Part shown: in pieces, positions 4,695 to 30,718 of the stretch
How the letters are laid out: every line of letters begins with the position of its first letter
Position numbering within the stretch: the stretch's first letter is position 1
Origin: an uncultured Myxococcales bacterium
GTDB taxonomy: Bacteria > Myxococcota_A > UBA9042 > UBA3505
Assembly (NCBI GenBank): GCA_964594295.1
Contig: CAZQPP010000003.1
Span: 1-48,504, forward strand
Direction of reading: 5' to 3'
DNA: 48,504 nucleotides
Made by a program: the position numbers and the translations under genes
Notes under the pieces: model-generated
Told to the model about the DNA's origin: nothing
The model's database searches: none
The model's input: only the letters and a program-made list of their open reading frames with translations

Positions 4695-4789
4695 GTAAAG
4701 CCCTCTCGGTGGTCGTTGGGTGTTGAGGCCGCGATTATCGAGGCCAGTGAGCTGTCATGCAAGCCGTCGCGCGCGGCGTCGTCGTCTCC

Positions 4790-5578
4790 TCACTCGTAGC
4801 GGTAGCGACCGGCGTAGTGATACTCGATCGCATACTGGTGGAGGTAGCCCCGGAGGTAGGCGCGTTGGCTCTCCGTGAGCCGATCCTCTCTTAGGTCCCG
4901 CTCGGACTCTGCGCCGTCGCTCGAGTCCATGCGTCGCAGGTGAAAGAGCGTCATGTCCTTGCCGCCGAAGAGGTCCCAGAGCGTGCGGTGGAGCCAGCGC
5001 GCCTCGCTCATGTCGAAGACGTGGCCCCACAACGCGGTGTGCTTCGAGTGGCGCGCGAGGGACTCTGCGTCGAAGACCCGGTCGCTCGCGGGCGGCTCGA
5101 AGGGCGGTGGCGCCGGGCGCTGCAAGACGGGCTGTGAGCGCAGCCATTCGACGTAGTCCGGGTCAATCCCGGCGCTCTCGGCCCCCTTGACGAGGATGTT
5201 GAGGTAGCGCCGGGTCGGCAGGCAGCTGTCGTCCACGAGGACGGGCCGCCCGACGTAGGTGTAGGCCGTGATCGTCTCGCCCGAGTCGGTGCGGACGTCG
5301 ACCTCGACCCGATCGTAGCCGACGCCGCAGCTCTCGAGCGCGTCCATCCGCTCGAGCTGGCCGTCGGGGCAGGTGTGCACGACTCCGCGAACGACCGCGC
5401 CCGGCTCGTCGCTCGGGACGATGTTGCCCACCCCGCCCTCGTGCCTGAACCAGTGCGTGATGTTGAAGCGCAGGCGCCACCCCGGCAGGGCGGCGCGCTC
5501 CGAGCGGAGGGGCTCCACCCCTTTTGCGCGCAGCGATGCAAGCTCCATGTTCGAGCCGTAACCGAAGTAATGGAACAC
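4790..5578 (-). CDS. gamma-glutamylcyclotransferase (GGCT/AIG2-like) domain protein with a ~130-aa C-terminal extension of unknown function
   Basis: This is the last 262 codons of chimeric track ORF 4790..8545. The N-terminus FHYFGYGSNMELASL carries the YGSNM signature of GGCT-like proteins. GTG 5578 is preceded by AAGGAGGA. The remaining ~990 upstream codons of the track ORF are an antisense shadow of 5711..9028. Confidence 0.85.
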   Translation of the reverse strand: MFHYFGYGSNMELASLRAKGVEPLRSERAALPGWRLRFNITHWFRHEGGVGNIVPSDEPGAVVRGVVHTCPDGQLERMDALESCGVGYDRVEVDVRTDSGETITAYTYVGRPVLVDDSCLPTRRYLNILVKGAESAGIDPDYVEWLRSQPVLQRPAPPPFEPPASDRVFDAESLARHSKHTALWGHVFDMSEARWLHRTLWDLFGGKDMTLFHLRRMDSSDGAESERDLREDRLTESQRAYLRGYLHQYAIEYHYAGRYRYE

Positions 5579-5581
5579 GGA

Positions 5582-5589
5582 TCCTCCTT
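5582..5589 (-). promoter_or_regulatory. Shine-Dalgarno sequence AAGGAGGA for the GGCT-like gene
   Basis: Plus-strand TCCTCCTT at 5582-5589 is the reverse complement of AAGGAGGA, 3-4 nt upstream of GTG 5578. Confidence 0.7.
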
Positions 5590-5710
5590 TCTGCCGGCCG
5601 CGAGCCCGCGAGTATGCAACGTTGGGGGCAAAGCCTGTCAAGCGGGGCCGATTTGCCCCGCAGTCCGTAGCGGGTAGCCTTCGCGCCACACGAAGAAGAA
5701 GGGGTACTCC

Positions 5711-8700
5711 TTGGAGAAGCGGAGCGAGCGGATCGGAAGCGGCGGGACAAGCGTCGACGTCGGGCTGGGGTACTATGAGGACATCCACGGCCTGTTCAGC
5801 TTCGGCAAGTACGGTCCGAGGCTGGAAGACGCCATCACCTTCGTGTTCAGCCAGAGCCTGCAGCGCGACATGTTCTTCGGGGCCTGGGCGATGGGTTACC
5901 GCGCCGGGGACGGCGAGTACCGCGTCAAGATCACGAGCCCCTGCGACGACGTGTCGAGCTACGAGACGCACATCCGCGAGTACGTCGAGGCCGGAAAGGA
6001 GGCGTTGTCGACCTACTACGAGAAGATCCCCTACCGGGCGCGCCGGGGCTGGGACTTTCTCCTGCCCTTTGGGCTGGCCATGGCGAACGTGCAGTCGATC
6101 CAGCTCCTGCACTTCCCGCCGCTCGAGACCTTCACCTACAAGGACTACCTGTACTCGCCGACGAACCGGCGCTGGGAGTGCCTGCTCGCGCAGAACGGCT
6201 TCGACGGCGCCAGGAACACGCTGCTCGAGAGGATCGTGGACATCGCCCCTGTCGCGGCCCCGGGTGGCGCGGGCAAAGCCTTTGAGCCGTACAACCGGGA
6301 CTTCGTGGGCTACGTGAAGCGCCAGCTGAACAACTTCCTCCGCCCGCTCGACGCGGCCGACGGCGAGGTCACGCAGCCGATCGTCGCCTACGGCGGTCCG
6401 GTGCACGAGTGGTTGCCGGCGGCCTTCCCGGACCAGGTGACGTCGCCGCCGCACACGATGGACCTGCTGCAGCTTTCGATCGTGGATAGAGCTGGCGACG
6501 ACTCCGGGGCGAAGACGTGGGTGCTGTGCGCGCACCACCCGAGCCAGTACCTCTACGACACGGACCTGCCGCTCTCGCAGGCCTTCGTTCCCCAGGGCGA
6601 GTACGCCGCGCCGGCCGTCGTAATGTGCCAGGACCTCGTGGCCGCGCGCTGGCAAGCACACATGGTGGCCAACCCGGGGGCCGACCCGCAGCGCGTCTTG
6701 GATGACGCCATGACTCACTGGGGATGGGACAAGGCGGCGGGGACCGTCACGAAGGACGAGGACAAGCGCCGGGCGCTCCTCGCCGCCATGGCGGAGCAGA
6801 ACCACGAGTTCTCGTACGTGGACGACACGCCGCAGCCTACTCCGGCGCAGGCGGCGGCCACGCAATTCGCCATCCAGCGCAGCGCCGAGAGCGACCGGTA
6901 CAGCGTCTGGGCCTTCGAGCCGCTCACCGAGGAGCCCTTCGCGGCGACGAAGACCAGCCGGTCCGCGAGCTTCGACTCGCACAGGCGCCTGATGCAGGTC
7001 GGCGGGTACCTCGTCGCCTGGGGCGTGTCCGGCGACGAGGCGCACTACAGCTTGATCCCTTTCGACCGGAACAGCGGCAACCCGCTCGCCGAGAAAGAGG
7101 CGGGGTACGGCTACTGGAAGAAGAACAAGTTCTTCAGCGACTACCGGCCCAACTTCGGCGCGGACTTCGATCAGCTGGAGCTCATTGGGCTGCCCGGCTA
7201 CGTGCTCAGCGTCATCCCGGCGCCCGGGCGGCGCACCTACCAGCTGTGGAGCTTCGATCCCCAGGCCGACCGTGACTGCCTGTCCAAGGGGCCCTTCCAG
7301 CAGGGTGGCTTCCGGGACATCCCGGCGGACCACGAGCTCTTGGCCATCGCCGACTACGTCCTCGACCGCAAGGGCTCGAGCTACCGCGTCTGGAGCTTCG
7401 ACCCGCAGTCCTCGCCGCCCTTGGCCCTTCCCGCGGTGCAGGATGGAACCTGGACGGCCATCGACGACAGCGACGCGATGGCGGCGATCGGGGAGTGGGT
7501 CGTGACGTGGAAACGCACAGACCCGAGCGCCGGCTGCCGGATCTGGAGGTTCGACCCGACCCTCTCGGACCCGCTGGGGGGTGAGCCGGTCAACACCTGC
7601 GCCTTGCCGGAGGGCTTCGACGCGGGCAGCACCCTGTCCGGCGTGCTGCCGCCGGCGCCCCAAGACGCGGGGAAAGCGACGACGCCGGGCACCATCGAGT
7701 TCATGCGCGAGAAGATCGAGCACGTCGTCTACTACATGCTCGAGAGCCGCTCCTTCGACAACGTCCTGGGGTGGCTCTACGAGCGGGGCAGGACTGAAGG
7801 GCTCAACTGGATCGGCGGCCGGGAGGGCGGCTTCCGCGGCGTTGACACCTCCATGAGCAACACGCTCCCGGACGGCAGCGCGGCGAAGCTCTCGAAGTAC
7901 GAGGAGGGCAAGCTCAGCGAGGCCTTCGTGCTCGGCGGTCCGGCGCAGGACCCGTGGCACAACAACAGCGACGTGCTGATGCAGCTGTTCCACGGCTACG
8001 TGGGCTACGCGAAGCGCCGGGAGCCGACGATGGACGGCTTCGCGTGGAACCAGAACAGCGGCGGGGTCATGTCGACCTTCACGCCCGAGCAGCTTTCGGT
8101 GCTCAACGGGCTCGCGGCGCACTTCGCGGTCAGCGACGAGTGGTTCGGCTCGCTGCCGGGAGGCACGGACGTCAACCGCGGCTTCTCGGTCAGCGGCTCG
8201 GCCTACGATCGCCTCGGGACCTGGGAGGGCGGCAAGCCCTACGAGGACTGGCCGGACACGCCGCACCGCCAGTCGATCTGGAAGGTGCTCTGGAGCCATG
8301 GCCACCGGGACTGGAAGATCTATTACAGCATCCTCTGGGGGCAGGCGGTCTTCAGCTACCAGCTCTACCTCAAGGGGCAGATCCCGGAGGTGGACTGGGC
8401 GTGGGCGGCAGCCGAAGGAGACATGCCGACCACCGACTGGATCGCGCCCTACGACCAATTCAAAGACGACGTGAGGTGCGGCAGGCTGCCCAGGTTCAGC
8501 TACATCGAGCCGGCCTGGGTCGGAAAGGCGTGCACCTCGTATCACCCGGGCTCGTCAAAGGACGGCCTGATCTCGGTGGTGCCGGGAGAGCGCGCGCTCA
8601 ACGACATCTACGAGACGCTCACCGCCAGGGAGAGCATCTGGTCGAAGACCCTCCTCGTCGTCACCTTCGACAAGAACGGGGGCCTCTTCGACCACGTGCC

Positions 8701-9028
8701 GCCCCCGTACGCCAGCAAGCCCTGGCCGCACGACGAGGTGGACGGCTTCGCCTTCGACCTGTTGGGCCCGCGGGTCCCGGCGGTCTTCGCCTCTCCGTGG
8801 ATCAAGCCCAACACGGTGCTGCGCCCGGGCAAAGACGGCGTCTTCGAGTCGACCTCCTTCGCGGCAACCCTGCTCGACTGGTACGGCATCCCCCGCGGCA
8901 CGTGGGGGCTGGGCGATCGCATGCCCAGGGTCTCGACGATCGAGCGGGTCTTCACGGAGCGCGAGGCCCGCGAGACGGCCCCGACCCTGACGGTCCCGTA
9001 CGACAAGGACTTCCCGAAGGGCTCCTGA
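5711..9028 (+). CDS. phosphoesterase-family protein (phospholipase C / AcpA-like) with a ~390-aa unknown N-terminal region and five ~50-aa WxFDP repeats
   Basis: Track ORF of 1105 aa. The C-terminal ~440 aa carry IEHVVYYMLESRSFDNVLG, LLVVTFDKNGGLFDHVPPP and GPRVPAVFASPWIKP, which match the phosphoesterase-family pattern. The start TTG 5711 has an AAGGGG SD-like sequence 7 nt upstream, so the start is not certain. No signal peptide is visible. Confidence 0.85.
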   Translation: MEKRSERIGSGGTSVDVGLGYYEDIHGLFSFGKYGPRLEDAITFVFSQSLQRDMFFGAWAMGYRAGDGEYRVKITSPCDDVSSYETHIREYVEAGKEALSTYYEKIPYRARRGWDFLLPFGLAMANVQSIQLLHFPPLETFTYKDYLYSPTNRRWECLLAQNGFDGARNTLLERIVDIAPVAAPGGAGKAFEPYNRDFVGYVKRQLNNFLRPLDAADGEVTQPIVAYGGPVHEWLPAAFPDQVTSPPHTMDLLQLSIVDRAGDDSGAKTWVLCAHHPSQYLYDTDLPLSQAFVPQGEYAAPAVVMCQDLVAARWQAHMVANPGADPQRVLDDAMTHWGWDKAAGTVTKDEDKRRALLAAMAEQNHEFSYVDDTPQPTPAQAAATQFAIQRSAESDRYSVWAFEPLTEEPFAATKTSRSASFDSHRRLMQVGGYLVAWGVSGDEAHYSLIPFDRNSGNPLAEKEAGYGYWKKNKFFSDYRPNFGADFDQLELIGLPGYVLSVIPAPGRRTYQLWSFDPQADRDCLSKGPFQQGGFRDIPADHELLAIADYVLDRKGSSYRVWSFDPQSSPPLALPAVQDGTWTAIDDSDAMAAIGEWVVTWKRTDPSAGCRIWRFDPTLSDPLGGEPVNTCALPEGFDAGSTLSGVLPPAPQDAGKATTPGTIEFMREKIEHVVYYMLESRSFDNVLGWLYERGRTEGLNWIGGREGGFRGVDTSMSNTLPDGSAAKLSKYEEGKLSEAFVLGGPAQDPWHNNSDVLMQLFHGYVGYAKRREPTMDGFAWNQNSGGVMSTFTPEQLSVLNGLAAHFAVSDEWFGSLPGGTDVNRGFSVSGSAYDRLGTWEGGKPYEDWPDTPHRQSIWKVLWSHGHRDWKIYYSILWGQAVFSYQLYLKGQIPEVDWAWAAAEGDMPTTDWIAPYDQFKDDVRCGRLPRFSYIEPAWVGKACTSYHPGSSKDGLISVVPGERALNDIYETLTARESIWSKTLLVVTFDKNGGLFDHVPPPYASKPWPHDEVDGFAFDLLGPRVPAVFASPWIKPNTVLRPGKDGVFESTSFAATLLDWYGIPRGTWGLGDRMPRVSTIERVFTEREARETAPTLTVPYDKDFPKGS

Positions 9029-9091
9029 GCCCGGCGGGCCCGCGGACGTTGACGGCTTCAAGGAGCCGGCGACGGGCAGTATGCACAGCTC

Positions 9092-10219
9092 TCAGAGGAG
9101 CTCGCGTAGAGCCGCGCCGAGGACCGCGATGTCCTGCGCGTCGTTGTAGTAGTGGACCGAGGCGCGCAGGGAGCCCCGCCGGCCGTTGATGATGATCCTG
9201 CGCTCGTGCAAGGCCGCCACGATCTGCTCGCAGCGATCCGGATCCCTGGGAGTGAAGCCGATGATTCCGGACTTGCGCTCCTGCTCTCCGCGGAAGGAGT
9301 TGATGTTCACCGGCAGCTGCCGGAGCTCATTCTCCAGCAGGTCCGAGAGCTCCAACACCCGCGTGGCGATGGCCTCCTGTCCCAGCTCCCGGGTGATGCG
9401 GCAGGACTCCATGATGGCGGCCACCTGGGCGAATGGCAGGCTCCCGAGCTCGATGGCGCTGCAGTCGGCCCGGATCTGTGGCGGGTCGTTGGCCATGGCC
9501 CAGGGATTCTCGACACTGCACCAGCCGGGCAGCGGCCAGGAGCGCCCGGCCCGGAAAGCCGGGCTGGCGTAGAAGACCGCGTGGCCGATGCCGGCGCAGA
9601 ACCACTTGTGGCAGGAGGCCGCAAAGGCGCTGACCTTGGCTTCCTCGAGCGCTATGGGGAAGGCGCCCAGCATCTGGGTCCCGTTGACGATGAACGGCAC
9701 TCCGCGGCGCGCCAGCTCCTCGCCGAGGCCCTCGAGGTCCATCCGGAATCCGTGCAGGAACTGCACGCCGCTGACCACAACCGCGGCCGTCCGGCGACCG
9801 AGCTTGGAGATCACGTCCTGCGTCTCCAGACGACCGTCACGCAAGGGGATGAGCCGGACCCGAAAGCCGTGGTGGTGCCAGGCCAGAACCGAAGCCGGGA
9901 ACTCGTCGGCGGGAAGAAGCACCTCCCGCTCCGGCCCATCCTTCAGCATCAGGGCCAGCATGTTCATGAGCAGCGAGGTGTTGAGCCCGAAGCCGATGTC
10001 GGCCGGCTCGACTCCGAGGAGTCCGGCCACCTCCGCCCGCGCTTCGCCCAGAAGCGCGAAATACTCGTGCTCCTCTGCCGCGCCCTGCGCGCAGGTGAAG
10101 TCGTTCCACCTGGCCAGGGCCTCCCGCGTGCGCCGGTGCATTCCGCCGACCGCCGCCGTAGCCAGATAGGTCTTGTCCCGGACGACCGCGAACTCCTGGC
10201 GGGTGCGCTCCCAACCCAT
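9092..10219 (-). CDS. aminotransferase class V-fold PLP-dependent enzyme (cysteine desulfurase / selenocysteine lyase-like)
   Basis: Track ORF of 375 aa with the general class V layout. ASCHKWF provides the His-Lys PLP-lysine context. ATG 10219 has GAGGAAG upstream. Confidence 0.8.
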   Translation of the reverse strand: MGWERTRQEFAVVRDKTYLATAAVGGMHRRTREALARWNDFTCAQGAAEEHEYFALLGEARAEVAGLLGVEPADIGFGLNTSLLMNMLALMLKDGPEREVLLPADEFPASVLAWHHHGFRVRLIPLRDGRLETQDVISKLGRRTAAVVVSGVQFLHGFRMDLEGLGEELARRGVPFIVNGTQMLGAFPIALEEAKVSAFAASCHKWFCAGIGHAVFYASPAFRAGRSWPLPGWCSVENPWAMANDPPQIRADCSAIELGSLPFAQVAAIMESCRITRELGQEAIATRVLELSDLLENELRQLPVNINSFRGEQERKSGIIGFTPRDPDRCEQIVAALHERRIIINGRRGSLRASVHYYNDAQDIAVLGAALRELL

Positions 10220-10252
10220 TTGCTTCCAGCTTCCTCGTGCTTTGGGCCTGTC

Positions 10253-10418
10253 AGCCTAGTTCCCGTCCTGAAACTCCCGTTTCAGGACGGGGGCTGTTAG
10301 CCGTTAGCTGTTAGCCGTTAGCCAGGCACCTGAGATCACTGCATTCCGGCTAACCGCTAATCGCTAATCGCTAATCGCTGCATCCTGAAACGCGAGTTTC
10401 AGGATGCACACCAGCCTA
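10253..10418. repeat. 166-bp composite palindromic intergenic element, copy A (MITE/REP-like, or a structured leader RNA)
   Basis: 164/166 identical to 25078-25243 in the same orientation. It contains two perfect 13-bp-stem hairpins (10262-10291 and 10379-10408) and opposed heptamer arrays (10296-10323 GTTAGCC-type, 10348-10375 GGCTAAC/CGCTAAT-type). AGCCTA sits at both ends. Confidence 0.9.
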
Positions 10419-10572
10419 GCACACGCTCGCGGCGCATTCTCCCTCGGTGCTCCGCTTCAAGTCCGGACGCTGGCTCCACAATACCCGCCGCTGCTGCACT
10501 TTCCGTGGGCGAGCTGGGGTCGGCTCCTCTGTGGCCGTGGCGCTGACCGCGGCCGTGGCGCCGCCCGTCCCC

Positions 10573-10830
10573 TCATCCGTTGCCATCGGCGTGCTCCGCG
10601 ATCAGGTCTGCCACGCGCGCCCACCCCGCCGAGTGGATGCCGTGTCCCATGCCTTCGATCACCTCCAGCCGCGTGCCGGGATGGCTCGGGCGGTGGCCCG
10701 GGTGGCGGCCACCGGGAAGAGCGGATCGCGCGCTCCGTGGATGACCAGGGCGGGAGCGCGGACTCTGCGCAGGGCGCGGTGCGCGCGCAGGCTCCGACAT
10801 GGCGTCGAGCCCAACGATCTGTCATCTTGC
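10573..10830 (-). pseudogene. C-terminal remnant of an alpha/beta-fold hydrolase, frameshifted and lacking its N-terminal part
   Basis: Minus frame A reads RSLRAHRALRRVRAPALVIHGARDPLFPVAATRATARAIP and then reaches a stop at 10659. Minus frame B continues PGTRLEVIEGMGHGIHSAGWARVADLIAEHADGNG with its stop at 10573. Joined, the two frames give a typical hydrolase C-terminus. The junction falls in a C-run near 10677-10685, which implies a 1-nt indel. No GxSxG region can exist upstream because the plus-strand gene starts at 10857. Confidence 0.55.
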
Positions 10831-10856
10831 CGAAGATCACTGCCTGAAATGCGACC

Positions 10857-12248
10857 GTGGCTGAGCGCAATGGCATACGGCGCCGAGGGCTGCTCCCCCG
10901 TGGGCTGCGCGGCGCTTCGTTGATCGCGGCCGCTGTTGCGGTCGCGGCGGTTGTTGCCTACGCGGGCTTCTCTGCCTTCGACGGGGAGGGCCCCGCGGGG
11001 CGAGGCGCGAGCGATGGTGTCGCCTCGCACCCGGACGCCGCGGAGGTGGCCCGCAACTGGCCCCGCTTTCGTGGGCCCGACGGCTCGGGTCGCGTGGACC
11101 TGGCGGGTCTCCCGCTGAGCTGGGACGGCGAGAGCGGCGAGAACATCTGCTGGAAGACGGCGCTCCCCCTCGACGGGGCGAGCTCTCCGATCGTGTGGGG
11201 CGAGCGGATCTTCCTCACCGGGGCCAACGCCAAGGCACGCGCGGTCTACGGTCTCGACGCGCGCACCGGAGAGCTCTTGTGGACGCACGACTGCGCCGGG
11301 ATCAAGGGCTCTCCGCGAGGCAAGCCGCCCAAGGTCTACGGCGACTACGGTTTTGCTGCCTCGACGCCCGCTACTGACGGCCGGCGCGTCTACGCCGTCT
11401 TCGCCAACGGCGACCTGGTGGCGACCGACATGGAGGGCGAGCGGGTCTGGGCCACGAGCCTGGGGCTGCCGCAGAATCAATGGGGCTTCGCCAGCTCCCT
11501 GGTCATGTGGCGAGACCGGCTGATCCTCCTGTTCGACCAGCGGCGCCGCAAGCCCAACGTCTCCGAGCTGATCGCCTTCGACTCGGGGAGCGGTGAGGTG
11601 GTCTGGAAGGTGAAGCGCGACGTCCGGGGATCGTGGACCACGCCGATCCTCGTCCCCCACGGCGGGACCGAGGAGCTCGTCGCCGTCGCCGACCCGTGGA
11701 CGATCGCCTACGAGCCCGGGACCGGTCGGGAGCTGTGGCGGGCCCGCGGGCTGGGCGGGTTCGTGGCGCCATCACCAATCTTCGACGGCGAGAGGATCGT
11801 GATCGGGATGCTGGACTATGGGCTGACGGCGTTGCGGCCGGGGGGCGACGGGGAGGTCACGGCGAAGCAGCGTGCCTGGTCCAACGACGAGTCGGCTCTG
11901 CCCGACGTGGGCAGCCCCGCCAGCGACGGGGAGCTCGTGTTCACGGTGTCGACCTCGGGGACGCTGAGCTGCTTCGACGCCAAGACCGGCGAGCTCCTCT
12001 GGCAGGAGGAGCTCGAGCTGCGGACCTGGGTGTCGCCGAGCCTGGTGGGCGACAAGCTCCTCGTCTTCGGCCAGAACGGCGACGCGGTTGTGCTGGCGGC
12101 GAGCCGCGAGCTTCGCGAGATCGGGAGGGCGAGCCTGGGCGAGGGCCGCGTCTTCGCCAGCCCGGCGTTTGCTCGAGTGGCCGGCGCGCCGCGCATGTTC
12201 GTCCGCACGCAGAAGCACCTCTTCTGCATCGGTGCCGGCAGCCTCTAG
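10857..12248 (+). CDS. PQQ-like beta-propeller repeat protein (BamB-like fold) with an N-terminal membrane anchor
   Basis: Track ORF of 463 aa. An Arg-rich N-terminus is followed by the hydrophobic segment SLIAAAVAVAAVVAYAGF and then WPRFRGPDGSG. Repeated motifs of the type 'G..W' and 'a.d..tG..lW' are typical of PQQ_2-type propellers. Confidence 0.85.
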   Translation: MAERNGIRRRGLLPRGLRGASLIAAAVAVAAVVAYAGFSAFDGEGPAGRGASDGVASHPDAAEVARNWPRFRGPDGSGRVDLAGLPLSWDGESGENICWKTALPLDGASSPIVWGERIFLTGANAKARAVYGLDARTGELLWTHDCAGIKGSPRGKPPKVYGDYGFAASTPATDGRRVYAVFANGDLVATDMEGERVWATSLGLPQNQWGFASSLVMWRDRLILLFDQRRRKPNVSELIAFDSGSGEVVWKVKRDVRGSWTTPILVPHGGTEELVAVADPWTIAYEPGTGRELWRARGLGGFVAPSPIFDGERIVIGMLDYGLTALRPGGDGEVTAKQRAWSNDESALPDVGSPASDGELVFTVSTSGTLSCFDAKTGELLWQEELELRTWVSPSLVGDKLLVFGQNGDAVVLAASRELREIGRASLGEGRVFASPAFARVAGAPRMFVRTQKHLFCIGAGSL

Positions 12249-13699
12249 GGTGCCCCTTCCGGCGCGCCTATGGCGTAGAGCTGCTTGACGCCCCGCAGGT
12301 AGATTCGTTCGTCCACGAAGACCAGGGACGCGCGGATGCTCTCCTGCAGGCGGCTGCGCGCCACTCGCTGGTAGGTCCGCCCCGGGCGCAGGACCAGTGT
12401 CGTCGCGGACTTGTCGGTGATGAAGAGGAGGTCGCCCGCGAGGCTGAAGCTGCTGTAGACCTCTCCGAGGGGCAGGGTCTCGCGGTACACTGTGCGCCCG
12501 TCGGCCGCGTCGAGCACGTAGAAGGTGGCCTCCTCGTTGATCGTGTAGAGCAGCCCATCGTGGACGAGGGGCTCGTTGAGGTGGTGGCCTGGGTCCAGCG
12601 ATCGCTCCCAGAGGCTCTCCCAGGCGAGATTCGCGCCCTTGGGCCGTAGGTCGAGGGCGCGCGCACGCACGTCTCTGTCGTTCTTGTTTCCCACGAAGAA
12701 GACCCGGCTGCCTTCGACGACCGGGCCCACGAACCACAGCTCCGGACCGGTCGGTGCGAGGAGCTCGCCGGTCGCCGCGTCGGACACCTCACCTCCCGGC
12801 GTGACGACGACGTCGCGGCCGTCTATGTGCGCGCTCCTCGGCGTCCCGAAGTGCCGGTACTCCGGGCCTCGCCACAGGACCTCACCGGTGCGTTTGTCGA
12901 GGGCGGTGAGGCGCCCGAGCCCGACGATGAGCCGGTCTCCGATGAGCAGCGGAGAGGCCGCCTGGCCGTGCTTGTAGCCCAGCGGGAGCTTCGCGGGGGG
13001 CCCGATCCAGACGGTCCAGCGGGCGTTGCCCTCGAGGTCGAAGGCCGCCGCGACTCCGTTGGCGAACACGACGTAGACGTGCTCGCCGTCGGTGACCGGG
13101 GTAGCCGACGAGTACCCGACGAAGGGGATCTCGGGCAGGACATGCCTCGCCGTGGCGTCGAGGCGCCCCGTGAGCGTCTCGAGCTCTCTGGAGATCGCCT
13201 CGAGCCGCGCGTAGATCCCGGCGGGCTCACGGCCCCTCCGGGCCTCGCGCTTGGCGAGGCGTGCCTCCTGTCGGAGCTTGTCGGTGCGCTCTCGAATGCC
13301 CTCGGCTTCGCTCAGCGCCCGGACAGCTTGGTCCCGCTCGGACGGCGGCAGCGTCTGAAGGTAAGTGACGTCGCGGCTCCAGACGATCTCCCCGCTCCCG
13401 GTGTCGACGGCGAGCAGGGTGGTCGGCTCCGACGGCGCGAAGAGCCGGTCTCCGACGACGACCGGCGTGGCGTTGCTCCACGACGGCATGGGGCTCGTCC
13501 ACAGCAGGTTGCGCTTCAGAGACCAGCCCGCGACGGGCCGCGCGTCGGGCTCGATGCCCGTGCCGTTCGAACGCCACCCGCTCGCCTGCGCCCGGCCGAC
13601 CCGGGGAAGTCCCCCCAGCGCCGCGAGGGCCAGCACGAGGACCGCCGTCACTCGACCGGCCGAGCCGTGTTGAAGGGCGCAACGTCGTGATCCGACCAT
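12245..13699 (-). CDS. PQQ-like beta-propeller repeat protein, secreted, with an ~80-aa charged helical insertion
   Basis: From track ORF 12245..13819. I prefer ATG 13699 (MVGSRRCALQHGSAGRVTAVLVLALAALGG, signal-peptide-like) over the longer start. Propeller repeats of the type LLAVDTGSGEIVW and LTALDKRTGEVLW are present. Confidence 0.8.
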   Translation of the reverse strand: MVGSRRCALQHGSAGRVTAVLVLALAALGGLPRVGRAQASGWRSNGTGIEPDARPVAGWSLKRNLLWTSPMPSWSNATPVVVGDRLFAPSEPTTLLAVDTGSGEIVWSRDVTYLQTLPPSERDQAVRALSEAEGIRERTDKLRQEARLAKREARRGREPAGIYARLEAISRELETLTGRLDATARHVLPEIPFVGYSSATPVTDGEHVYVVFANGVAAAFDLEGNARWTVWIGPPAKLPLGYKHGQAASPLLIGDRLIVGLGRLTALDKRTGEVLWRGPEYRHFGTPRSAHIDGRDVVVTPGGEVSDAATGELLAPTGPELWFVGPVVEGSRVFFVGNKNDRDVRARALDLRPKGANLAWESLWERSLDPGHHLNEPLVHDGLLYTINEEATFYVLDAADGRTVYRETLPLGEVYSSFSLAGDLLFITDKSATTLVLRPGRTYQRVARSRLQESIRASLVFVDERIYLRGVKQLYAIGAPEGAP

Positions 13700-13766
13700 C
13701 GGGCGGCAGTGTACCCCCGGCCCGGCCATTGGGGAAACGAGGGTCGCGCCCACACCGAGCGTGTCC

Positions 13767-13795
13767 TTGACAGCCCTTTTTTGAGGCGAAACACT
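13767..13795 (+). promoter_or_regulatory. candidate sigma70-type promoter TTGACA-17 nt-AACACT, which may give a leaderless transcript for the FGE-domain gene
   Basis: TTGACA lies at 13767-13772 and AACACT at 13790-13795 after a 17-nt T-rich spacer. The preferred GTG start at 13802 sits about 7 nt after the -10 element. The call rests on sequence pattern only. Confidence 0.3.
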
Positions 13796-13801
13796 CGACG
13801 C

Positions 13802-14857
13802 GTGAGGACACGAGAGCATTGGAAGCCTGCCGTCGCGGCGGTAGCCGCGGCCGCGCTGGCCGGTGTGCTCTTCGTTGCGCTCCGGTCGGGCGAGGATGGC
13901 GCCAGCGACCTGCCTGCCGGCGGGGTATTTGTCGGTGAGCCCGGCGACGGTGACTACGAGGACGAGTTTCGTCCGGTCATGATCCCGCCGCCATCCAAGG
14001 GGCCCGAAGCGCCCGGGTGTCGCCGGGCGTCAGGGTCTCCGAAGGCCTGCCGGGTATCGAACCTCGATCGCTACGTCTCGGACACCGATCGCGAGTGCCT
14101 GCTCTACATCCCGGGCGGCCGCTTCCTGATGGGAGCGCAGTCGAGCGCGCCGGAGCAGCCCGGCTACGACCCTCGCGCCGAGGCGAACGAGGCTCCGCCA
14201 CACTGGGTGGAGCTGTCTCCCTACTGGCTGCACAAGCATGAGGTCGCGGCCGGTGACTACGCGGCCTGCGTCGCCGCAGGTGCCTGCTCGGGAGACAGCG
14301 TCCGCGCCGAGGGCCTGCACTGCACCTACGGCGACACGGGTCTCACAGACCACCCGGTGAGCGGCGTGACGTGGCGCGGCGCCGCCGACTACTGCGCCTG
14401 GCTCGGCGGCTCGCTGCCCACGGAGGCCCAGTGGGAGCACGCGGCGCGCGGCAGAGACGGCCGGCGCTTCCCCTGGGGCAACGTGGAGCCGCACTGCGGG
14501 CTGGCGAGGATGGCGGCTACCGACACCGTGGACATGTCGGACGACGAGTTCACGGGCTGCATGTACGACGGCACGAGGCCCGTCGCGCGCCTGACCTATG
14601 GTGGCCAGAGCGCCTTCGGCGCGGTCGACATGGGCGGCAGCGTCTGGGAGTGGGTCGCGGACCGATACGGGGAGTACGCCGCCTCGGAGCGCGCCGAGGA
14701 GGATCCAGCCGGACCGAAAGACGGCACACGGCGCGTGCAGCGCGGCGGCGGATTCGACGACGGCTCCGAGGCCCTGCGTTCGGCGCGGCGCGCTCACCTC
14801 GATCCGAGCGCGAAGCTGTGCGACGTCGGCTTCCGGTGCGCCTTCAGCGTCGACTAA
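13802..14857 (+). CDS. formylglycine-generating enzyme (FGE-sulfatase / SUMF1-EgtB-PvdO) domain protein, membrane anchored
   Basis: From track ORF 13709..14857, with the start trimmed to in-frame GTG 13802 ahead of the anchor WKPAVAAVAAAALAGVLFVAL. Motifs are HPVSGVTWRGAADYCAWLGGSLPTEAQWEHAARG, FPWGN, GSVWEWVADRY, RVQRGGG and GFRCA. Confidence 0.85.
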   Translation: MRTREHWKPAVAAVAAAALAGVLFVALRSGEDGASDLPAGGVFVGEPGDGDYEDEFRPVMIPPPSKGPEAPGCRRASGSPKACRVSNLDRYVSDTDRECLLYIPGGRFLMGAQSSAPEQPGYDPRAEANEAPPHWVELSPYWLHKHEVAAGDYAACVAAGACSGDSVRAEGLHCTYGDTGLTDHPVSGVTWRGAADYCAWLGGSLPTEAQWEHAARGRDGRRFPWGNVEPHCGLARMAATDTVDMSDDEFTGCMYDGTRPVARLTYGGQSAFGAVDMGGSVWEWVADRYGEYAASERAEEDPAGPKDGTRRVQRGGGFDDGSEALRSARRAHLDPSAKLCDVGFRCAFSVD

Positions 14858-14909
14858 AGCCGTGCGCCTGATAGGCTGGCGCCGTGAATCAACCTCCACG
14901 GGGGTAGGC

Positions 14910-16145
14910 ATGGGACCTCGACTCCTGATCGTCTTCGCGCTCGCGCTCTGCGCCCCGGCCGCGTTCGCCGCGGACCCGCCCAGCGCGACGGAGGGCTCCT
15001 GGCCGCAGTGGAACGGGCCCAACCGCGACGGCCGGTCGCCGGAGACCGGTCTCTTGCGCGAGTGGCCGAAGGGCGGCCCCGAGGTCGTGTGGAAGCGCAA
15101 GCTGGGCGGAGGCTTCTCGGGCATCGCGGTCGACAGGGGCCACCTCTACACGATGGCCTCGGACGACAAGGACACCTACGGCGTGTGCTGGAACGCGTTG
15201 ACGGGCACCGAGCTGTGGCGCACGCGGATCGACGGCCGCTACGAGGACAGCATGGGCGGCTCCGGGCCCCGCACCACGCCGACGGTGACCGGCAGGCGGG
15301 TGATCGTGATGAGCGGCACCGGCAAGCTGGCCGCGCTCAACGCCGTGAACGGCACGCTCGTGTGGCAGCGCGACCTGGTCAAGGAGCTCGCCGGCATCAT
15401 CCCCAAGTGGGGCTACTCCCAGTCGCCGTTGGTCCACCAAGGGCGGATCTACGTCGACGCCGGCGCCGTCCCGAACCGCATGTTGATGGCCTTCGACGCC
15501 GAGACCGGCAAGGAGATCTGGGGCTCGGGCATGGGACCCGCGGGCTACTCGTCGCCGATCATCTCCCGCCTCGCCGGCTTGGAGCAGCTGGTGTTCTTCG
15601 TGGGCAACCGCGTGCTCGGGGCGCGGCCGTCGGACGGCGAGATCCTGTGGGAGCGGAAGTGGAGCACGAGCTATGACGTCAACGCGGCGACTCCGCTCGT
15701 GGTTGGGCCGGACCGGGTCTTCGTGGCGAGCGGCTACGGCACCGGAGGCGCCGTGCTCGAGGTGCTCAAGGAGGGCGACGGCTTTGGGGTGAACGAGGTC
15801 TGGTTCTCCAAGAAGTTCAGGAGCCAGTGGGCCACACCGGTGCTCCACAAGGGCTACCTCTACGGCTTCGACGCCACGCGCTTTGCCTGCGTGGACGCGG
15901 CGACCGGAGAGGAGATGTGGGCTCAGGAGGGCTTCGACCGGGGCAGCGTCGTGTTCGCCGACGATCTGCTCTTCGTGCTCGGCGAGGAGTGCGACATGGC
16001 GCTGGCGGAAGCCACCTCGGAAGGCTTCAAGAACAAGGGCGCCTTCCACCCGCTGGGCGTCAAGTGCTGGACCGCGCCGTCCATCGCCGGCGGGAGGATG
16101 TACCTGCGCGACGAGAAGTACGCCGTGGCTTTGAAGGTCCGGTAG
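14910..16145 (+). CDS. PQQ-like beta-propeller repeat protein, secreted
   Basis: From track ORF 14598..16145, trimmed to ATG 14910. MGPRLLIVFALALCAPAAFAADP is a clear Sec signal. It is followed by WPQWNGPNRDGRS and repeats of the type ALNAVNGTLVW and AFDAETGKEIW. Confidence 0.85.
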   Translation: MGPRLLIVFALALCAPAAFAADPPSATEGSWPQWNGPNRDGRSPETGLLREWPKGGPEVVWKRKLGGGFSGIAVDRGHLYTMASDDKDTYGVCWNALTGTELWRTRIDGRYEDSMGGSGPRTTPTVTGRRVIVMSGTGKLAALNAVNGTLVWQRDLVKELAGIIPKWGYSQSPLVHQGRIYVDAGAVPNRMLMAFDAETGKEIWGSGMGPAGYSSPIISRLAGLEQLVFFVGNRVLGARPSDGEILWERKWSTSYDVNAATPLVVGPDRVFVASGYGTGGAVLEVLKEGDGFGVNEVWFSKKFRSQWATPVLHKGYLYGFDATRFACVDAATGEEMWAQEGFDRGSVVFADDLLFVLGEECDMALAEATSEGFKNKGAFHPLGVKCWTAPSIAGGRMYLRDEKYAVALKVR

Positions 16146-16154
16146 CTCGCCGCC

Positions 16155-17684: not shown

Positions 17685-17823
17685 GTCTGGCTCCTCACTG
17701 GCGCGCGCGTGGGCGGGAGTGTACGCACGGTCGTGGACGCTGTCACCGGCGCTACCGCTCGGGGCGCCGCTGCGCCCGCCGGCCGAGCATGACGCAGACC
17801 CCAGATCCAACCCCAAGCACACC

Positions 17824-18222: not shown

Positions 18223-18496
18223 CCCGACGACACCGGAGTTGCCCGTCGCGGGGCGGTGGGCTAAAGCCCTCCAGCGATGCGGCGCCCTCCCCCCGAACCC
18301 GGAGAAGAGACCGAAGACCGGACGGCCCGGGAGCCCGAGGCTCCGCGGCACTCCGAAGCTCTTCGCCTGGTCTCCGTCGAAGAGCTGAAGACCGGAGACT
18401 ACGACGGCAGCTGCCTGCGCCCTCTCGGTCTCTGCGATCTCGGATTATGTGACGTGTGCTGGTACCGGCCCGATCACCCCCGCTTTCGGAAGGACG

Positions 18497-22556: not shown

Positions 22557-23848
22557 GTCGCCCCTCCCCGCCTCCGGGCCGCTGCCTCACAGACGCGCCT
22601 CACGCTCGCCGCCATCCGTGAAGCGGTGTGGCGCTGCCGCACGGCGTCGCGTCCCCGCCGTGCCAGCTCCTCTCGCTTGGCCTCGTCGCAGAGCAGGGCG
22701 GCGAGGGCGTCGTCCAAGGACTCGGGCACCGAGGGGTCGTACAGGATGCCTCCTCCGGTGTCCTCCACGAGCTCCACGAAGGCGCCGTGACGCGGCTGGA
22801 CCACCGGGACGCCGGCGGCGAGGGCCTCGTAGACCGAGCGGCCCGACGACTCCCACGGCTCAGCGGGCACGGAGAACACGGTGAGCCCCTTCAAGAACGA
22901 GATCTTCTCGTCGCGCCCGAGGTCGACCTCCCAGGAGACGTCACCGGCGAAAGGCGAGGTCGCGAGCCGGCGCCTCAGCTCGGCGATGGTGTCGCGATCA
23001 GCCGGGACGGTGGTGCCCGCCACGTGGAGCCGGAGGTCTCGCAGCTCGTCTCGCTGCTTGAGGCGACAGAAGCTGTCGACCAGTCGAGCGAGGCCCTTGT
23101 CCTCACACTGCCGGGCGAGGTAGCCCACGACCGGCGGCTCGGGCGCCGCCCCCTCGACCGCGTCGTAGCCCGAGAGATCGAGCCCGGTCGGTACCAGCGA
23201 CAGCCGCCCCTCTTCCACTCCGAGCCGCTGCGCCATGCGCTCGCCGTGGTAGCGGCTGAAAGCCGCGAAGGCGGAGACCTCGCCGGCGCGCTCGCAGAGG
23301 AGGGCCCAGGCCTCGCTCCGGTAGGGCTCGGGGAGCGCGCGCAGGAAGGTCTCCTCCCCTTGCAGGATGCACACAACCTGGGCGCCGGTCGCTTCGAGCA
23401 GCGAGCGCGCCAGGCCGAGGAGCAGCACGTTGGAGAGGCAGACGACGTCCGGGCGCTGCTCCGCGAGCCATCCGGCGAGCGCGCTCACCTCGGCGGCCTG
23501 CTTGCCGGTCTCGCCCCGGAGCGTGGAGACGGTGGTCTTCCCGAGCACCGACGCACGGGTCATCGTGCTCCTGCGCCCGGCCCAGCGCATGATCGACGGA
23601 CGCGACAGCAAGGCCGCGACCGGACGTGCCAGCCAGGAGAGCCCCATCTGGCGCAGCCCCACGCGGATGCCGTTCAAGAACAGCGGCGCGTGCGGTGCCT
23701 GTGGCTCGTCGAGCAGCGCCGGCAGGTACAGGGGCACGGTGATGACGTCCACACCGATCTCGTGCAGGCCGCGCGCCAGCGCGTTGTCGCGCAGGCAGGT
23801 GCCGCAGTAGAAGCCGCCCGCGCCGGGCGTGAGCAGGGCAACCCTCAA
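22553..23848 (-). CDS. glycosyltransferase family 4 (GT-B, group 1)
   Basis: From chimeric track ORF 22553..25033. The TTG 23848 start gives (M)RVALLTPGAGGFYCGTCL. The C-terminal motif EPWESSGRSVYEALAAGVPVVQPRHGAFVELVEDTGGGILYDP is typical of GT4. The gene overlaps both neighbours by 4 nt. Confidence 0.85.
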   Translation of the reverse strand: MRVALLTPGAGGFYCGTCLRDNALARGLHEIGVDVITVPLYLPALLDEPQAPHAPLFLNGIRVGLRQMGLSWLARPVAALLSRPSIMRWAGRRSTMTRASVLGKTTVSTLRGETGKQAAEVSALAGWLAEQRPDVVCLSNVLLLGLARSLLEATGAQVVCILQGEETFLRALPEPYRSEAWALLCERAGEVSAFAAFSRYHGERMAQRLGVEEGRLSLVPTGLDLSGYDAVEGAAPEPPVVGYLARQCEDKGLARLVDSFCRLKQRDELRDLRLHVAGTTVPADRDTIAELRRRLATSPFAGDVSWEVDLGRDEKISFLKGLTVFSVPAEPWESSGRSVYEALAAGVPVVQPRHGAFVELVEDTGGGILYDPSVPESLDDALAALLCDEAKREELARRGRDAVRQRHTASRMAASVRRVCEAAARRRGGAT

Positions 23849-25065
23849 GGCTTCTTGCTCTCCGGCGCCGGCTTCTTCTTCGCGGGCTCGCGCTTCGCGC
23901 CGAATGCGAAGACGCGGCCCTCCTCGCTGCCCACCACGACCACGCCGCCGGCGACCGCGGGGGAGGCGCTGACGGCGTCGCCGAGGTCGTAGGACCACTG
24001 CTCCTTCCCGTCGGCGAGGCCCAGGACGTACAGGCGGCCGTCCCCCGAGCCGACGATCACGTGCGAGCCGGAGATCACCGGTGAGGAGTCGACCTGGCCG
24101 TTGGTGCGGTGGGTCCACACCTTCTCCCCGGTCCCGCGGGCCAGGGCGTACACGTTGCGATCGCGGGCGCCGAAGATGACCATGTCCCCGTGCACAGCGG
24201 CCGACGAGATGATGCCGTCGGGCCCCAACGAGCGCTCCCAGCTGACGCGCGGGGCGCCCAGGTCGACGCGGACGAAGCGCCCGTCGTGGAGGCCGATGAA
24301 GGCGTCGCCGCCGTCGATGGCCACCGAGGCGCCCATGTAGGACTCGAGGGCCGCCGGCGGGAGCTTGGAGCCGTCCGAGACCTTCACCCGGTGCAGGAAG
24401 CCGTCGCAGCCCCCGGCGAGCGCGATCCCGGCCTGGATCGCCGGCGTGGCGTGCACGTAATTGCCGGTCTCGTAGGACCAGGCCGCCTTGCCGGTCGCGC
24501 CGTCGACGGCGTGGATCTTGCCGTCGTAGCTCCCGACGACCACGCGACCGCCGGCGTCGGCGTTGGCGCCGCCCAGGATCTTGTCGCCGGTGGCGTAGCT
24601 CCAGCGCAGCGCGCCGGTGGCGGCGTCGAGGGCGTAGAGCTTGCCGTCGGCGGCGCCGGCGATGACCGCTCCGCCGTGCAGGAGGGGAGGCGCCTCCACG
24701 GCGCCGCCCGCGGTGAAGGCCCACTCCACGGCCCCGCTCGCGAGCGACACGGCGCGGATCTTCTTGTCCTTGGAGCCGAAGTAGGCCCTGCCGTCGCCGA
24801 CGGCCGCCGTCGACTTCACGGCCCTCGAGGTCTTCACCTCCCAGCGCAGCTCCAGCGGCAGCGACACCGTCGAGCGCGCCACGCCGCGCTGCTCGGGGCC
24901 GCCGCGGAAGCTGGGCCAGACGCCGGTCTTGCCGGCCGTCAGCGCAGCGGCGCCCGCGCGAGCGGCGCCGGGCTCGGGCTCGGGCTCGGGAGGGCGTGTG
25001 CGCTTGGTGCAACACGCGCCCAGCACGGCGCACAACGCGGTGGTGAGCAGGAGCCTGGCTCTCAT
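23845..25065 (-). CDS. PQQ-like beta-propeller repeat lipoprotein
   Basis: Track ORF of 406 aa with the lipobox LGAC in MRARLLLTTALCAVLGACC, followed by WPSFRGGPEQRG. Repeats include YALDAATGALRW, HAVDGATGKAAW, YALARGTGEKVW and YVLGLADGKEQW. Confidence 0.88.
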   Translation of the reverse strand: MRARLLLTTALCAVLGACCTKRTRPPEPEPEPGAARAGAAALTAGKTGVWPSFRGGPEQRGVARSTVSLPLELRWEVKTSRAVKSTAAVGDGRAYFGSKDKKIRAVSLASGAVEWAFTAGGAVEAPPLLHGGAVIAGAADGKLYALDAATGALRWSYATGDKILGGANADAGGRVVVGSYDGKIHAVDGATGKAAWSYETGNYVHATPAIQAGIALAGGCDGFLHRVKVSDGSKLPPAALESYMGASVAIDGGDAFIGLHDGRFVRVDLGAPRVSWERSLGPDGIISSAAVHGDMVIFGARDRNVYALARGTGEKVWTHRTNGQVDSSPVISGSHVIVGSGDGRLYVLGLADGKEQWSYDLGDAVSASPAVAGGVVVVGSEEGRVFAFGAKREPAKKKPAPESKKP

Positions 25066-25077
25066 GGGGAGGATCTT

Positions 25078-25243
25078 AGCCTAGTTCCCGTCCTGAAACT
25101 CCCGTTTCAGGACGGGGGCTGTTAGCCGTTAGCTGTTAGCCGTTAGCCAGGCACCTGAGATCACTGCATTCCGGCTAACCGCTAATCGCTAACCGCTAAT
25201 CGCTGCATCCTGAAACGCGAGTTTCAGGATGCACACTAGCCTA
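25078..25243. repeat. 166-bp composite palindromic intergenic element, copy B
   Basis: It has the same orientation and architecture as 10253-10418. The two mismatches are 25193 C versus 10368 T and 25237 T versus 10412 C. It sits 12 nt upstream of ATG 25065 and 25 nt downstream of the livM stop at 25269. Confidence 0.9.
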
Positions 25244-25268
25244 TCAACGAATCGCAGGCGCTCCCCTG

Positions 25269-26363
25269 TCAGTACCGGAACGGCCACCCCAGGAAGTAGC
25301 GCTTCACCCTCAGCCACACGCCGAGGAGACCGAGGGGCTCGACGACGAGCACGAGGCACACGAGCACGCTGAAGATGAGCGTCGACTGCTGGGCGGAGCT
25401 GAGCTCGTTCAAGAGGGGCACGTAGCGGCCGGCGCTCTCCGCGAGGGGGGTGAGGAAGACGAAGGCGATGGCTCCCCAGACCGCGCCGAAGACCGTCCCG
25501 ATGCCGCCGAGGACTATCATCGCGATGTACTGGATGCTCATCTCGAGGTCGAAGGGGGGCTCGATGGTCAGGTACTGCTGCTGCATGGCGAACATTCCGC
25601 CAGCGATGCCCGCGAAGAACGAGCTGAGCCCGAAGGCGATGATCTTCACCCTGGCCGGGTGCACCCCGAGGGCGCTCGCCGCGAGGTCCTGGTCCCTCAC
25701 CGCCATCATGGCCCGGCCGGTGTTGGAGCGAGCGAGGCGGACGGCCCAGAGGGTCGTGGCGCCGGCGAGGACCAGGAACACAAGGTAGAGCTTCTGCCCG
25801 TAGACCAGGGTGAGGGGGCCCAGCTCCGTTGGCTTCGTGAAGCTGCCGAGGGGGTCGCCGCCGTCGCCTTTCGGGAAGCTGCCGTGCACGGCGACGGCGA
25901 TGCCGCTGACCCCGTGGGTGAGGTCGGGCAGGGAGTGCAGGAGGTGGTTGACGACGAAGAGCAGGCCCAGGGTCACGATGGCGAGGTAGAGCCCCCTGAG
26001 GCGCAGGGCGAAGGGGCCGACGAGGAGACCGACGGCAGCCGAGACGAGGCCGCCCGCGGGGAGGCCCAGCCAGAAGGGCGCGCCGAAGCGCTCCGAGAGG
26101 ATGGCGAGGGTGTAGGCGCCGAGGGCCAGGAAGGCCGCGTGCCCGAGGCTTATCTGCCCCGCGAAGCCCGTGAGGATCATCAGGCTCACCGAGCCCACGA
26201 CCGCCACGAGGGCCATGTTGCCGACGGTGAGCCAGTGAGCTCCCGCCACGAAGGGGAAGAGCAGGGCCGCCGCCAGGGCCAGCACGAAGCCCACCTTGCC
26301 CCAGAGGTCCGGCAGGAGCGCCAGGTCGTCCTCGTAGCGGGTGATGAGCGGGCGGGTCGGCAT
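25269..26363 (-). CDS. livM: branched-chain amino acid-type ABC transporter permease (LivM family)
   Basis: Track ORF of 364 aa. It is polytopic and hydrophobic and follows the LivH-type permease in the operon. The substrate is not established. Confidence 0.85.
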   Translation of the reverse strand: MPTRPLITRYEDDLALLPDLWGKVGFVLALAAALLFPFVAGAHWLTVGNMALVAVVGSVSLMILTGFAGQISLGHAAFLALGAYTLAILSERFGAPFWLGLPAGGLVSAAVGLLVGPFALRLRGLYLAIVTLGLLFVVNHLLHSLPDLTHGVSGIAVAVHGSFPKGDGGDPLGSFTKPTELGPLTLVYGQKLYLVFLVLAGATTLWAVRLARSNTGRAMMAVRDQDLAASALGVHPARVKIIAFGLSSFFAGIAGGMFAMQQQYLTIEPPFDLEMSIQYIAMIVLGGIGTVFGAVWGAIAFVFLTPLAESAGRYVPLLNELSSAQQSTLIFSVLVCLVLVVEPLGLLGVWLRVKRYFLGWPFRY

Positions 26364-30703: not shown

Positions 30704-30718
30704 CGCGGTCGCCGGAGC

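Follow-up and report, generated by a model that had tools for sequence, protein, structure and literature searches.

The 166-bp unit of two hairpins that bracket opposed heptamer arrays raises the question of what kind of sequence it is and how it came to stand where it does. The first-pass annotation of the 48,504-nt stretch of DNA analyzed here (the window) had offered two explanations for it, a non-autonomous mobile element and a three-helix regulatory RNA, and had not recognized it as a member of a described family. Our analysis favors the first explanation. The unit is a discrete, sharp-ended repeat that occurs in at least three copies in unrelated intergenic contexts. We assign it, with a probability of roughly 0.6, to the non-autonomous dispersed repeats of MITE/BIME/REPIN type; the working model is a transposase-type mechanism that duplicates AGCCTA.

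One of the source samples (SAMN10231904) is seawater from the water column of an oxygen-minimum or oxygen-deficient zone (PMC12220078). The closest homologue of the class V aminotransferase encoded beside the unit is only 59% identical. Named homologues of the permease encoded beside its second copy are 64 to 67% identical and are labelled Myxococcales, Deltaproteobacteria, Planctomycetota or Alphaproteobacteria. The host is an uncultured high-G+C bacterium of marine oxygen-deficient water, and proteins of the window were recovered in JGI, ENA and Logan metagenome assemblies. The samples concerned include JGI 3300009374 and 3300009332, ENA ERZ23499040, ERZ23499064, ERZ23499057, ERZ23498668 and ERZ23498658, and run SRR8062344.

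Every part of the unit lies where it had been placed by inspection of the letters, as do the two hairpins with their common core (Table 1). This 22-nt core, TCCTGAAAC-N4-GTTTCAGGA, is found at only four places in the window, two per copy; 100 shuffles gave an expectation of 0.00. The repeat finder returned both hairpin stems as perfect over 13 bp (10262-10274 with 10279-10291, and 10379-10391 with 10396-10408). It also returned the imperfect third stem that the heptamer arrays had been proposed to form (27 nt, 81% complementary), and showed that the terminal arms of the unit make up an imperfect inverted repeat of 35 nt (80% complementary). This terminal match falls mostly within the hairpin modules, and the outermost 13 nt match weakly. 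The G+C content of the unit, estimated earlier as about 55% and below that of the surroundings, is 54.8%, compared with 70 to 71% in the 500 nt on each side. Stop codons, supplied by the TTAGC and GCTAA units, are present in all six frames.

Comparison of hairpins 1 and 2 revealed that the inner 9 bp (TCCTGAAAC/GTTTCAGGA) are invariant and that all four outer stem pairs differ (CCCG/CGGG versus TGCA/TGCA), with both hairpins still perfectly paired. An invariant inner stem together with an outer stem that is merely paired is expected of sites that are read as folded single strands or as symmetric duplexes, and is reminiscent of the REP units of REPINs and BIMEs. The loops, TCCC and TCGC (the reverse complement of GCGA), agree at three of four positions, and do so only in inverted orientation. 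The 5' contexts of the hairpins are GCCTAGTT and GGCTGGTG, with GTAG absent from both; they too agree in inverted orientation only, and the motifs found just 5' of each stem on its own strand are alike (GCCTAGT and GGCTGGT). A loose form of the hairpin pattern, TCCTGAAACN4GTTTCAGGA, returned 69 unrelated loci in the genome-contig collection.

Table 1. Features of the two window copies of the 166-bp unit, their neighboring genes, and comparable units in two phage-like contigs (positions in the window unless a contig is named)
Feature	Position	Strand	Evidence or remark
Copy A of the repeat unit (166 bp)	10253..10418		Sharp-edged identity to copy B, 164/166
Left terminal hexamer AGCCTA, copy A	10253..10258	+	Left junctions A and B alike; D reads AGCCTC
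Hairpin 1, copy A, CCCGTCCTGAAAC-TCCC-GTTTCAGGACGGG	10262..10291		13/13 complementary; core common to hairpin 2
Four tandem heptamers GTTAGCC/GTTAGCT (TTAGC core), copy A	10296..10323	+	Tandem Repeats Finder: period 7, 4.0 copies
24-nt spacer, loop of the heptamer stem, copy A	10324..10347		Sequence and fold
Four opposed heptamers GGCTAAC/CGCTAAT (GCTAA core), copy A	10348..10375	+	Tandem Repeats Finder: period 7, 4.4 copies; pairs with 10297-10323
Hairpin 2, copy A, TGCATCCTGAAAC-GCGA-GTTTCAGGATGCA	10379..10408		13/13 complementary
Right terminal hexamer AGCCTA, copy A	10413..10418	+	Variable base (here C) directly before it, at 10412
Copy B of the repeat unit	25078..25243		Same orientation, 14,825 bp from copy A; alignment
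Hairpin 1, copy B	25087..25116		Core at 25091-25112
GTTAGCC-type heptamer array, copy B	25121..25148	+	Tandem Repeats Finder
GCTAAC/GCTAAT heptamer array, copy B	25173..25200	+	Perfect 14-mer tandem; Tandem Repeats Finder: period 14, 100% matches
Hairpin 2, copy B	25204..25233		Core at 25208-25229
Class V aminotransferase gene	9092..10219	-	Pfam PF00266, E 2.5e-24; directly downstream of copy A in gene sense
PQQ/BamB-type beta-propeller lipoprotein gene	23845..25065	-	Pfam PF13570, PF13360; downstream of copy B in gene sense; start backed by identical gene calls
Branched-chain amino-acid ABC permease gene	25269..26363	-	Pfam PF02653; upstream of copy B in gene sense
Heptamer units of contig L274	8385-10898, 1136-1222		
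Heptamer units of contig L232	3950-4020, 6804-6900, 8773-8863, 9687-9789, 10418-10514		

Copies A and B differ at two places, by a T/C change within a heptamer at element position 116 and by a C/T change at position 160, directly ahead of the right hexamer. In an 800-bp alignment of both copies, similarity begins and ends abruptly at AGCCTA...AGCCTA, and the flanks are unrelated. Copy A stands 33 nt upstream of the ATG of the aminotransferase gene (10219), a gene that was called in other assemblies as well. Copy B fills a gap between a stop codon and an ATG, 25 nt past the permease stop and 12 nt ahead of the start of the lipoprotein gene (25065).

The surrounding DNA has some features of its own. 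G+C rises from about 0.65-0.72 over positions 1-19000 to 0.73-0.75 over 19001-25000, a block of ABC-transporter, glycosyltransferase and lipoprotein genes that ends at copy B. Six genes for PQQ/BamB-type beta-propeller proteins are found in the 48 kb (10857-12248, 12245-13819, 14598-16145, 23845-25065, 38128-41505 and 42905-44602), one of them fused to 4Fe-4S domains, and such a local cluster of paralogues is unusual. A 33-bp tandem repeat (30709-30808; 3.0 copies matching at 77%) overlaps a periplasmic-binding-protein gene (30719-32182, minus strand) at its 3' end.

Other metagenome assemblies contain junctions of the unit in addition to those of the window. A third right flank (C) was found in contigs from four samples (L071, L072, L201 and L204), with the junction CACACAAGCCTA/GAGAATCGCAG, also read as CACACAAGCCTA/GAGAATCGCAGCC. 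It carries a gene for a 108-aa protein and genes for multihaem cytochromes. One of these contigs, L204, comes from JGI 3300009374, the same sample as L070 and L076, which match the window without a difference at sites A and B. A third left flank (D), with the junction GAAGCT/AGCCTC/GTTCCC, is present in L078. Three left and three right junction halves imply at least three copies. Identity across the documented copies is 98 to 99%; the first 115 nt of the element are the same in both window copies, and over this length L078 departs from them at position 6 alone. The contig found for the right flank of copy A ends 270 nt short of the element. Searches with the combined hairpin-plus-heptamer pattern gave no match in viral contigs or in metagenome contigs, the latter evidently without the JGI sample of the host, and the plasmid and phage collections returned heptamer-level matches or nothing.

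Seven contigs (L070, L073, L074, L076, L077, L201 and L204) start or end inside the unit, as short-read assemblies break at genomic repeats. Some ENA contigs also join flanks in combinations unlike those of the window, A-left with C-right in L071 and L072 (two samples) and D-left with B-right in L078, and as possible chimeras across the repeat they could be taken to mean that the dispersed copies are themselves products of mis-assembly or of chimeric contig joining. We consider this extremely unlikely, given that the same junction halves recur in independent JGI, ENA and Logan assemblies of several samples, and that breaks inside the unit are how a genuine genomic repeat behaves. The unusual joins reflect either strain-level rearrangement by recombination between copies or consistent assembly chimeras. 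In the host genome, the unit marks repeat-induced assembly breaks and possible points of recombination.

Two observations concern the DNA next to these junctions. The right flanks of B (25249-25257) and C (L071 4541-4549, minus strand) share GAATCGCAG, 2 to 5 nt past the end of the element, which copy A is without; it could be there by chance, through a target preference, or as part of a longer form of the element. To the left of junction D, about 500 nt (L078 2215-2710, minus strand) are devoid of a convincing ORF. They contain several UUCG-type tetraloop hairpins and end in a hairpin followed by GTGTTT, with a fold of -258.8 kcal/mol (z -6.4) and no Rfam match at E≤0.1. This region may be an unannotated structured RNA that is truncated by the contig end.

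Predicted folds of the unit are very stable on both strands. The RNA of the plus strand folds with -85.9 kcal/mol and that of the minus strand with -94.9 kcal/mol (both z -9.7 versus shuffles), an extra closing stem giving the latter a four-way junction. The plus strand as DNA folds with -48.8 kcal/mol (z -8.8 versus shuffles). The fold is the one point in favor of the three-helix regulatory RNA, which otherwise lacks support: the unit matches no Rfam family and is not conserved outside the host organism. Rfam covariance models found nothing at gathering score in the window, and a search of 10150-10520 at E≤10 gave one chance match of 8.5 bits. Moreover, the identity of 98 to 99% extends across stems, loops and spacer alike, unlike what is seen in a structure-constrained RNA family. 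No sigma-70-like promoter was detected around either window copy, nor an intrinsic terminator (G+C-rich hairpin with a T run) on either strand.

The proximity to genes leads to a broader form of this explanation, in which the unit is a non-mobile cis-regulatory module of the host that stands ahead of several genes and is kept uniform by selection or by gene conversion. It would be either a structured RNA, leader or intercistronic, or two operators (TCCTGAAAC-N4-GTTTCAGGA) accompanied by heptad iterons and bound by a dimeric protein. The three documented copies are each close to a start codon, at 33 nt (A), 12 nt (B) and 128 nt (C), which in two cases places a very stable structure 12 to 33 nt ahead of the gene. 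The perfect palindromes resemble operator sites, the fold is extremely stable, and in two phage-like contigs described below heptamer hairpins occur regularly between cistrons. On the other hand, near-identity that includes the loops and the spacer, with knife-edge boundaries, is at odds with such a module. So are the neighboring genes, whose functions are unrelated (they encode an aminotransferase, a PQQ-type lipoprotein and, beside cytochrome genes, a 108-aa protein), and the lack of any Rfam match or promoter or terminator consensus. A relative, moreover, has the orthologous site without the element. Taken together, these points make a non-mobile module improbable.

The relative encodes a homologue of the 108-aa protein that is 77% identical. 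Its upstream DNA (L202, L203) aligns with the C-right flank of the host for about 200 nt, beginning at CTAGAGA, of which CTA are the last 3 nt of the unit. Upstream of this alignment there is no similarity to the element, and the locus is an empty site orthologous to copy C. The first-pass annotation had tied its mobile-element reading to there being more than two copies or empty sites, and this reading is supported on both counts. No empty site was seen within the population, where every contig that reaches site A or B carries the element. In a second relative (L205), whose permease is 90% identical, the element is absent past the permease stop, but synteny also ends there and makes site B uninformative.

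The ends of the unit suggest how it may have been inserted. In each window copy the left and the right hexamer are preceded by one and the same base, cytosine in copy A (C/C) and thymine in copy B (T/T); at junction C the right hexamer follows an adenine. Copies A and B are thereby bounded by direct 7-mers, CAGCCTA/CAGCCTA and TAGCCTA/TAGCCTA, with six positions constant at all sites. The matching base before both hexamers, together with an empty-site alignment that starts inside the right hexamer, suggests that the AGCCTA hexamers are a target duplication of 6 to 7 bp. This is a plausible interpretation of the sequence for which the evidence is suggestive only, with chance probabilities of about 1/16 for the matching bases and about 1/64 for the start of the alignment, both of which were noticed post hoc. 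Taken as a single copy, D-left and C-right would have terminal 7-mers with two differences (TAGCCTC versus AAGCCTA). There is no flanking duplication outside the hexamers. Since AGCCTA is nearly invariant, a duplication would need strict target choice.

No transposase, RAYT or integrase was found in the 48.5-kb contig by Pfam scans. In the working model, the unit would be mobilized in trans, by an enzyme whose gene lies elsewhere in the genome. This enzyme would recognize the two terminal hairpin modules, inverted with respect to each other and sharing the inner 9-bp stem TCCTGAAAC/GTTTCAGGA, and would insert the unit at AGCCTA-like sites, duplicating 6 to 7 bp (NAGCCTA) to leave the direct terminal hexamers. 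A parent insertion sequence, if there is one, would have ends that start with GTTCCCGTCCTGAAAC or that carry the two hairpins. The interior is the convergent heptamer-array hairpin 5'-(TTAGCNN)4-loop-(NNGCTAA)4-3', an arrangement also found between cistrons in other bacteria and in phage-like contigs. Transcripts that cross the element are predicted to form a junction of three or four helices, very stable and just before the next start codon. This junction may serve as a structural module between cistrons, for instance as a barrier or a processing site, the stops in six frames being incidental. Some points speak against this reading: the number of documented copies is three, the termini outside the hairpins are weakly inverted, and a 7-bp duplication with six identical positions at three independent sites would mean an unusually strict choice of target.

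The hairpins also accommodate a mechanism of the REPIN type, in which they would be inverted REPs that spread as single-stranded DNA through a RAYT (an IS200/IS605-like Y1 transposase) and produce no target duplication. AGCCTA and its neighbors would then belong to the element and correspond to the 5' tetranucleotide that is conserved in REPs. Perfect 13-bp hairpins with an invariant inner and a compensated outer stem fit recognition of a single strand in its folded form. The two modules stand inverted to each other and have similar 5' motifs on their own strands (GCCTAGT and GGCTGGT), and no duplication flanks the element beyond the hexamers. One metagenome locus (L082 1690-2265) nests heptamer arrays with classic GTAG-type REP hairpins in a single palindromic intergenic structure. 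However, the 5' motif of the unit contains CTAG or CTGG and not GTAG, three copies are known where tens to hundreds are usual, and the matching variable base in A and B, as well as the start of the empty-site alignment, fits a duplication better. We judge spread of this type to be unlikely, though less so than a non-mobile module, and retain transposition with target duplication as the working model.

The heptamer arrays proved not to be peculiar to this host. A scan for four TTAGCNN units returned at least 120 loci in metagenome contigs and at least 120 in viral contigs. Pairs of arrays were counted when each had at least three units and the two lay on opposite strands no more than 150 nt apart; a pair was termed convergent if the TTAGC array came first and the GCTAA array second, an order that is the same on both strands. 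Among the matches listed, convergent pairs outnumbered divergent ones by 36:1 in the metagenome contigs (L079-L198; binomial p 5.5e-10) and by 47:21 in the viral contigs. The 166-bp unit, with its convergent order, four units per arm and 24-nt loop, is within the range of this class. The control cores CGATT and TTGAC are also biased toward convergence (16:4 and 20:2, among the matches listed). Where TTAGC arrays occur, the genome also abounds in other heptamer arrays; in the window, no heptamer array lies outside the two copies.

The metagenome hairpins (for example, L086 698-776, L139 3359-3467, L157 3019-3097 and L158 983-1054) come from contigs with G+C of 34 to 69%, and among the matches listed their loops range from 2 to 143 nt, mostly about 25 to 38 nt. 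Perfect hairpins like those that flank the arrays of the unit were found beside none of the metagenome heptamer hairpins listed. In the metagenome locus L082 1690-2265, (TTAGCGN)4 and (GGGAGTA)4 on the left and (ACTCCCC)5 and (GCTAACC)5 on the right bracket two inverted REP-like GTAGGGG...GGAGCTTGCTCC hairpins.

Two candidate properties of the arrays did not gain support. Unique abundance of TTAGC heptamers is not supported, as viral contigs contain at least 120 loci for each of the control cores CGATT and TTGAC, and 56 for TATGC. Selection of the arrays for stops in all frames was rejected: of 488 period-7 arrays taken without selection, 62% carry a stop codon on one or both strands, and 19% carry stops on both; composition-matched nulls give 62 to 64% and 16 to 20%.

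The arrays have a polarity with respect to genes. In a crude count of ORFs among the matches listed, GCTAA-sense arrays lie no more than 30 nt upstream of the start of a long ORF in 30 of 115 cases, versus 6 of 115 for TTAGC-sense arrays, and in the same ORF-based view the first TTAGC unit often contains the end of a long ORF. This arrangement is most regular in two phage-like contigs from IMG/VR, of which L274 encodes an integrase and L232 a minor head protein and a distal tail protein. In both, a conserved unit of about 95 nt occupies almost every gap in runs of co-directional genes (Table 1). The stop codon of the upstream gene falls inside the first heptamer and is followed by (TTAGCTN)4-5, a GCGCGC-N4-GCGCGC hairpin, GAGTAACTT, (AGCTAAN)5, and finally the ribosome-binding site (GGAGG) and ATG of the next gene. 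Copy B, in its gap between stop and ATG, has a position of the same kind. Small hairpins combined with heptamer arrays are thus a recurring design; the small hairpin of the phage-like units lies inside the arrays, whereas in the 166-bp unit two hairpins lie outside them.

In one contig (L150), different heptamer hairpins have different loops, which indicates that most heptamer hairpins look locally formed rather than copied from one mobile unit; L274, L232 and the 166-bp unit are the exceptions. Tentatively, we propose that convergent heptamer hairpins of the form 5'-(TTAGCNN)n-loop-(NNGCTAA)n-3', with analogues made of other heptamers, could be a widespread and undescribed intercistronic cis-element of bacteria and phages, which in the present host would have been captured between REP-like hairpins and so become mobile. 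If so, their constant orientation toward gene ends would point to a conserved factor or process that recognizes them. The polarity and the filling of gene gaps in the phage-like contigs suggest a role at the RNA level, such as processing, stabilization or insulation of cistrons.

The claim that the unit belongs to no described family stands for the unit as a whole, which is a new family within the MITE/BIME/REPIN-like kind, and falls for its heptamer part, which belongs to a recurrent class of heptanucleotide arrays. The literature gave no account of convergent heptamer hairpins or of the 166-bp element, and heptamer strings gave nothing relevant. Among known elements, the unit shares with the BIMEs and REPINs of Escherichia coli, Pseudomonas and other bacteria, which are associated with RAYTs, an intergenic, non-coding mosaic of two inverted palindromic hairpins and a linker, its occurrence in multiple near-identical copies, and the ability of the whole to fold as a long hairpin or cruciform. 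It differs from them in its linker, an 80-nt convergent heptamer-array hairpin, in its 5' motif (CTAG/CTGG, where theirs is GTAG), in its direct terminal hexamers, and in its three documented copies.

With bacterial MITEs (for example, Correia of Neisseria, ERIC/IRU of enterobacteria, RUP of pneumococci and Nezha of cyanobacteria), the unit has in common a size of 100 to 200 bp, ends that carry imperfect inverted repeats and a short direct repeat, an intergenic location near genes, strong RNA or DNA structure, and the absence of coding sequence. It departs from them in that its putative duplication is nearly invariant (AGCCTA) and its termini outside the hairpins are weakly inverted. Palindrome-associated elements derived from IS200/IS605 have subterminal hairpins in the same orientation, whereas the modules and flanks of the unit are inverted. 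In integron attC sites, R'' (RYYYAAC) lies 5' and R' (GTTRRRY) lies 3'. GTTAGCC and GGCTAAC of the unit are each one position off these motifs, and their order is the opposite, with the GTTAG type first and the CTAAC type second on both strands, which sets the unit apart from attC.

At the functional level, the early mRNA of phage T7 contains intercistronic hairpins at which RNase III processing takes place. Like these, copy B and the units of L274 and L232 would give long imperfect double-stranded RNA hairpins between cistrons; the likeness may be one of function, as the T7 hairpins have no sequence relationship to the unit.

The interior of the unit finds its closest counterparts among tandem heptanucleotide arrays, such as the STRR sequences of cyanobacteria. 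Heptanucleotides have been reported as the commonest long simple-sequence repeats in many prokaryotic genomes. In marine Beggiatoaceae, direct repeats of TAACTGA lie just upstream of start codons, where forward repeats produce stops in all three frames, and one set among 170 in the genome is an inverted repeat (PMC4679880). Geobacter metallireducens has families of 4x and 5x tandem heptanucleotides (PMC2700814), and heptameric repeats have been termed under-studied (PMC4692102). The unit shares with these published arrays (STRR, TAACTGA and Geobacter) four to five tandem 7-nt units in an intergenic location, often directly before start codons; at least four tandem 7-nt units, as in STRR, are found in the inner 80 nt of the unit only. 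The published arrays are described as direct, whereas the unit has two complementary arrays that converge as a stem inside a larger dispersed repeat. It is best read as a mobilized intercistronic heptamer hairpin bracketed by two REP-like hairpins, and it connects two groups that are usually dealt with separately, small mobile palindromic repeats and tandem heptanucleotide arrays, the latter mentioned in several genome papers but left unexplained.
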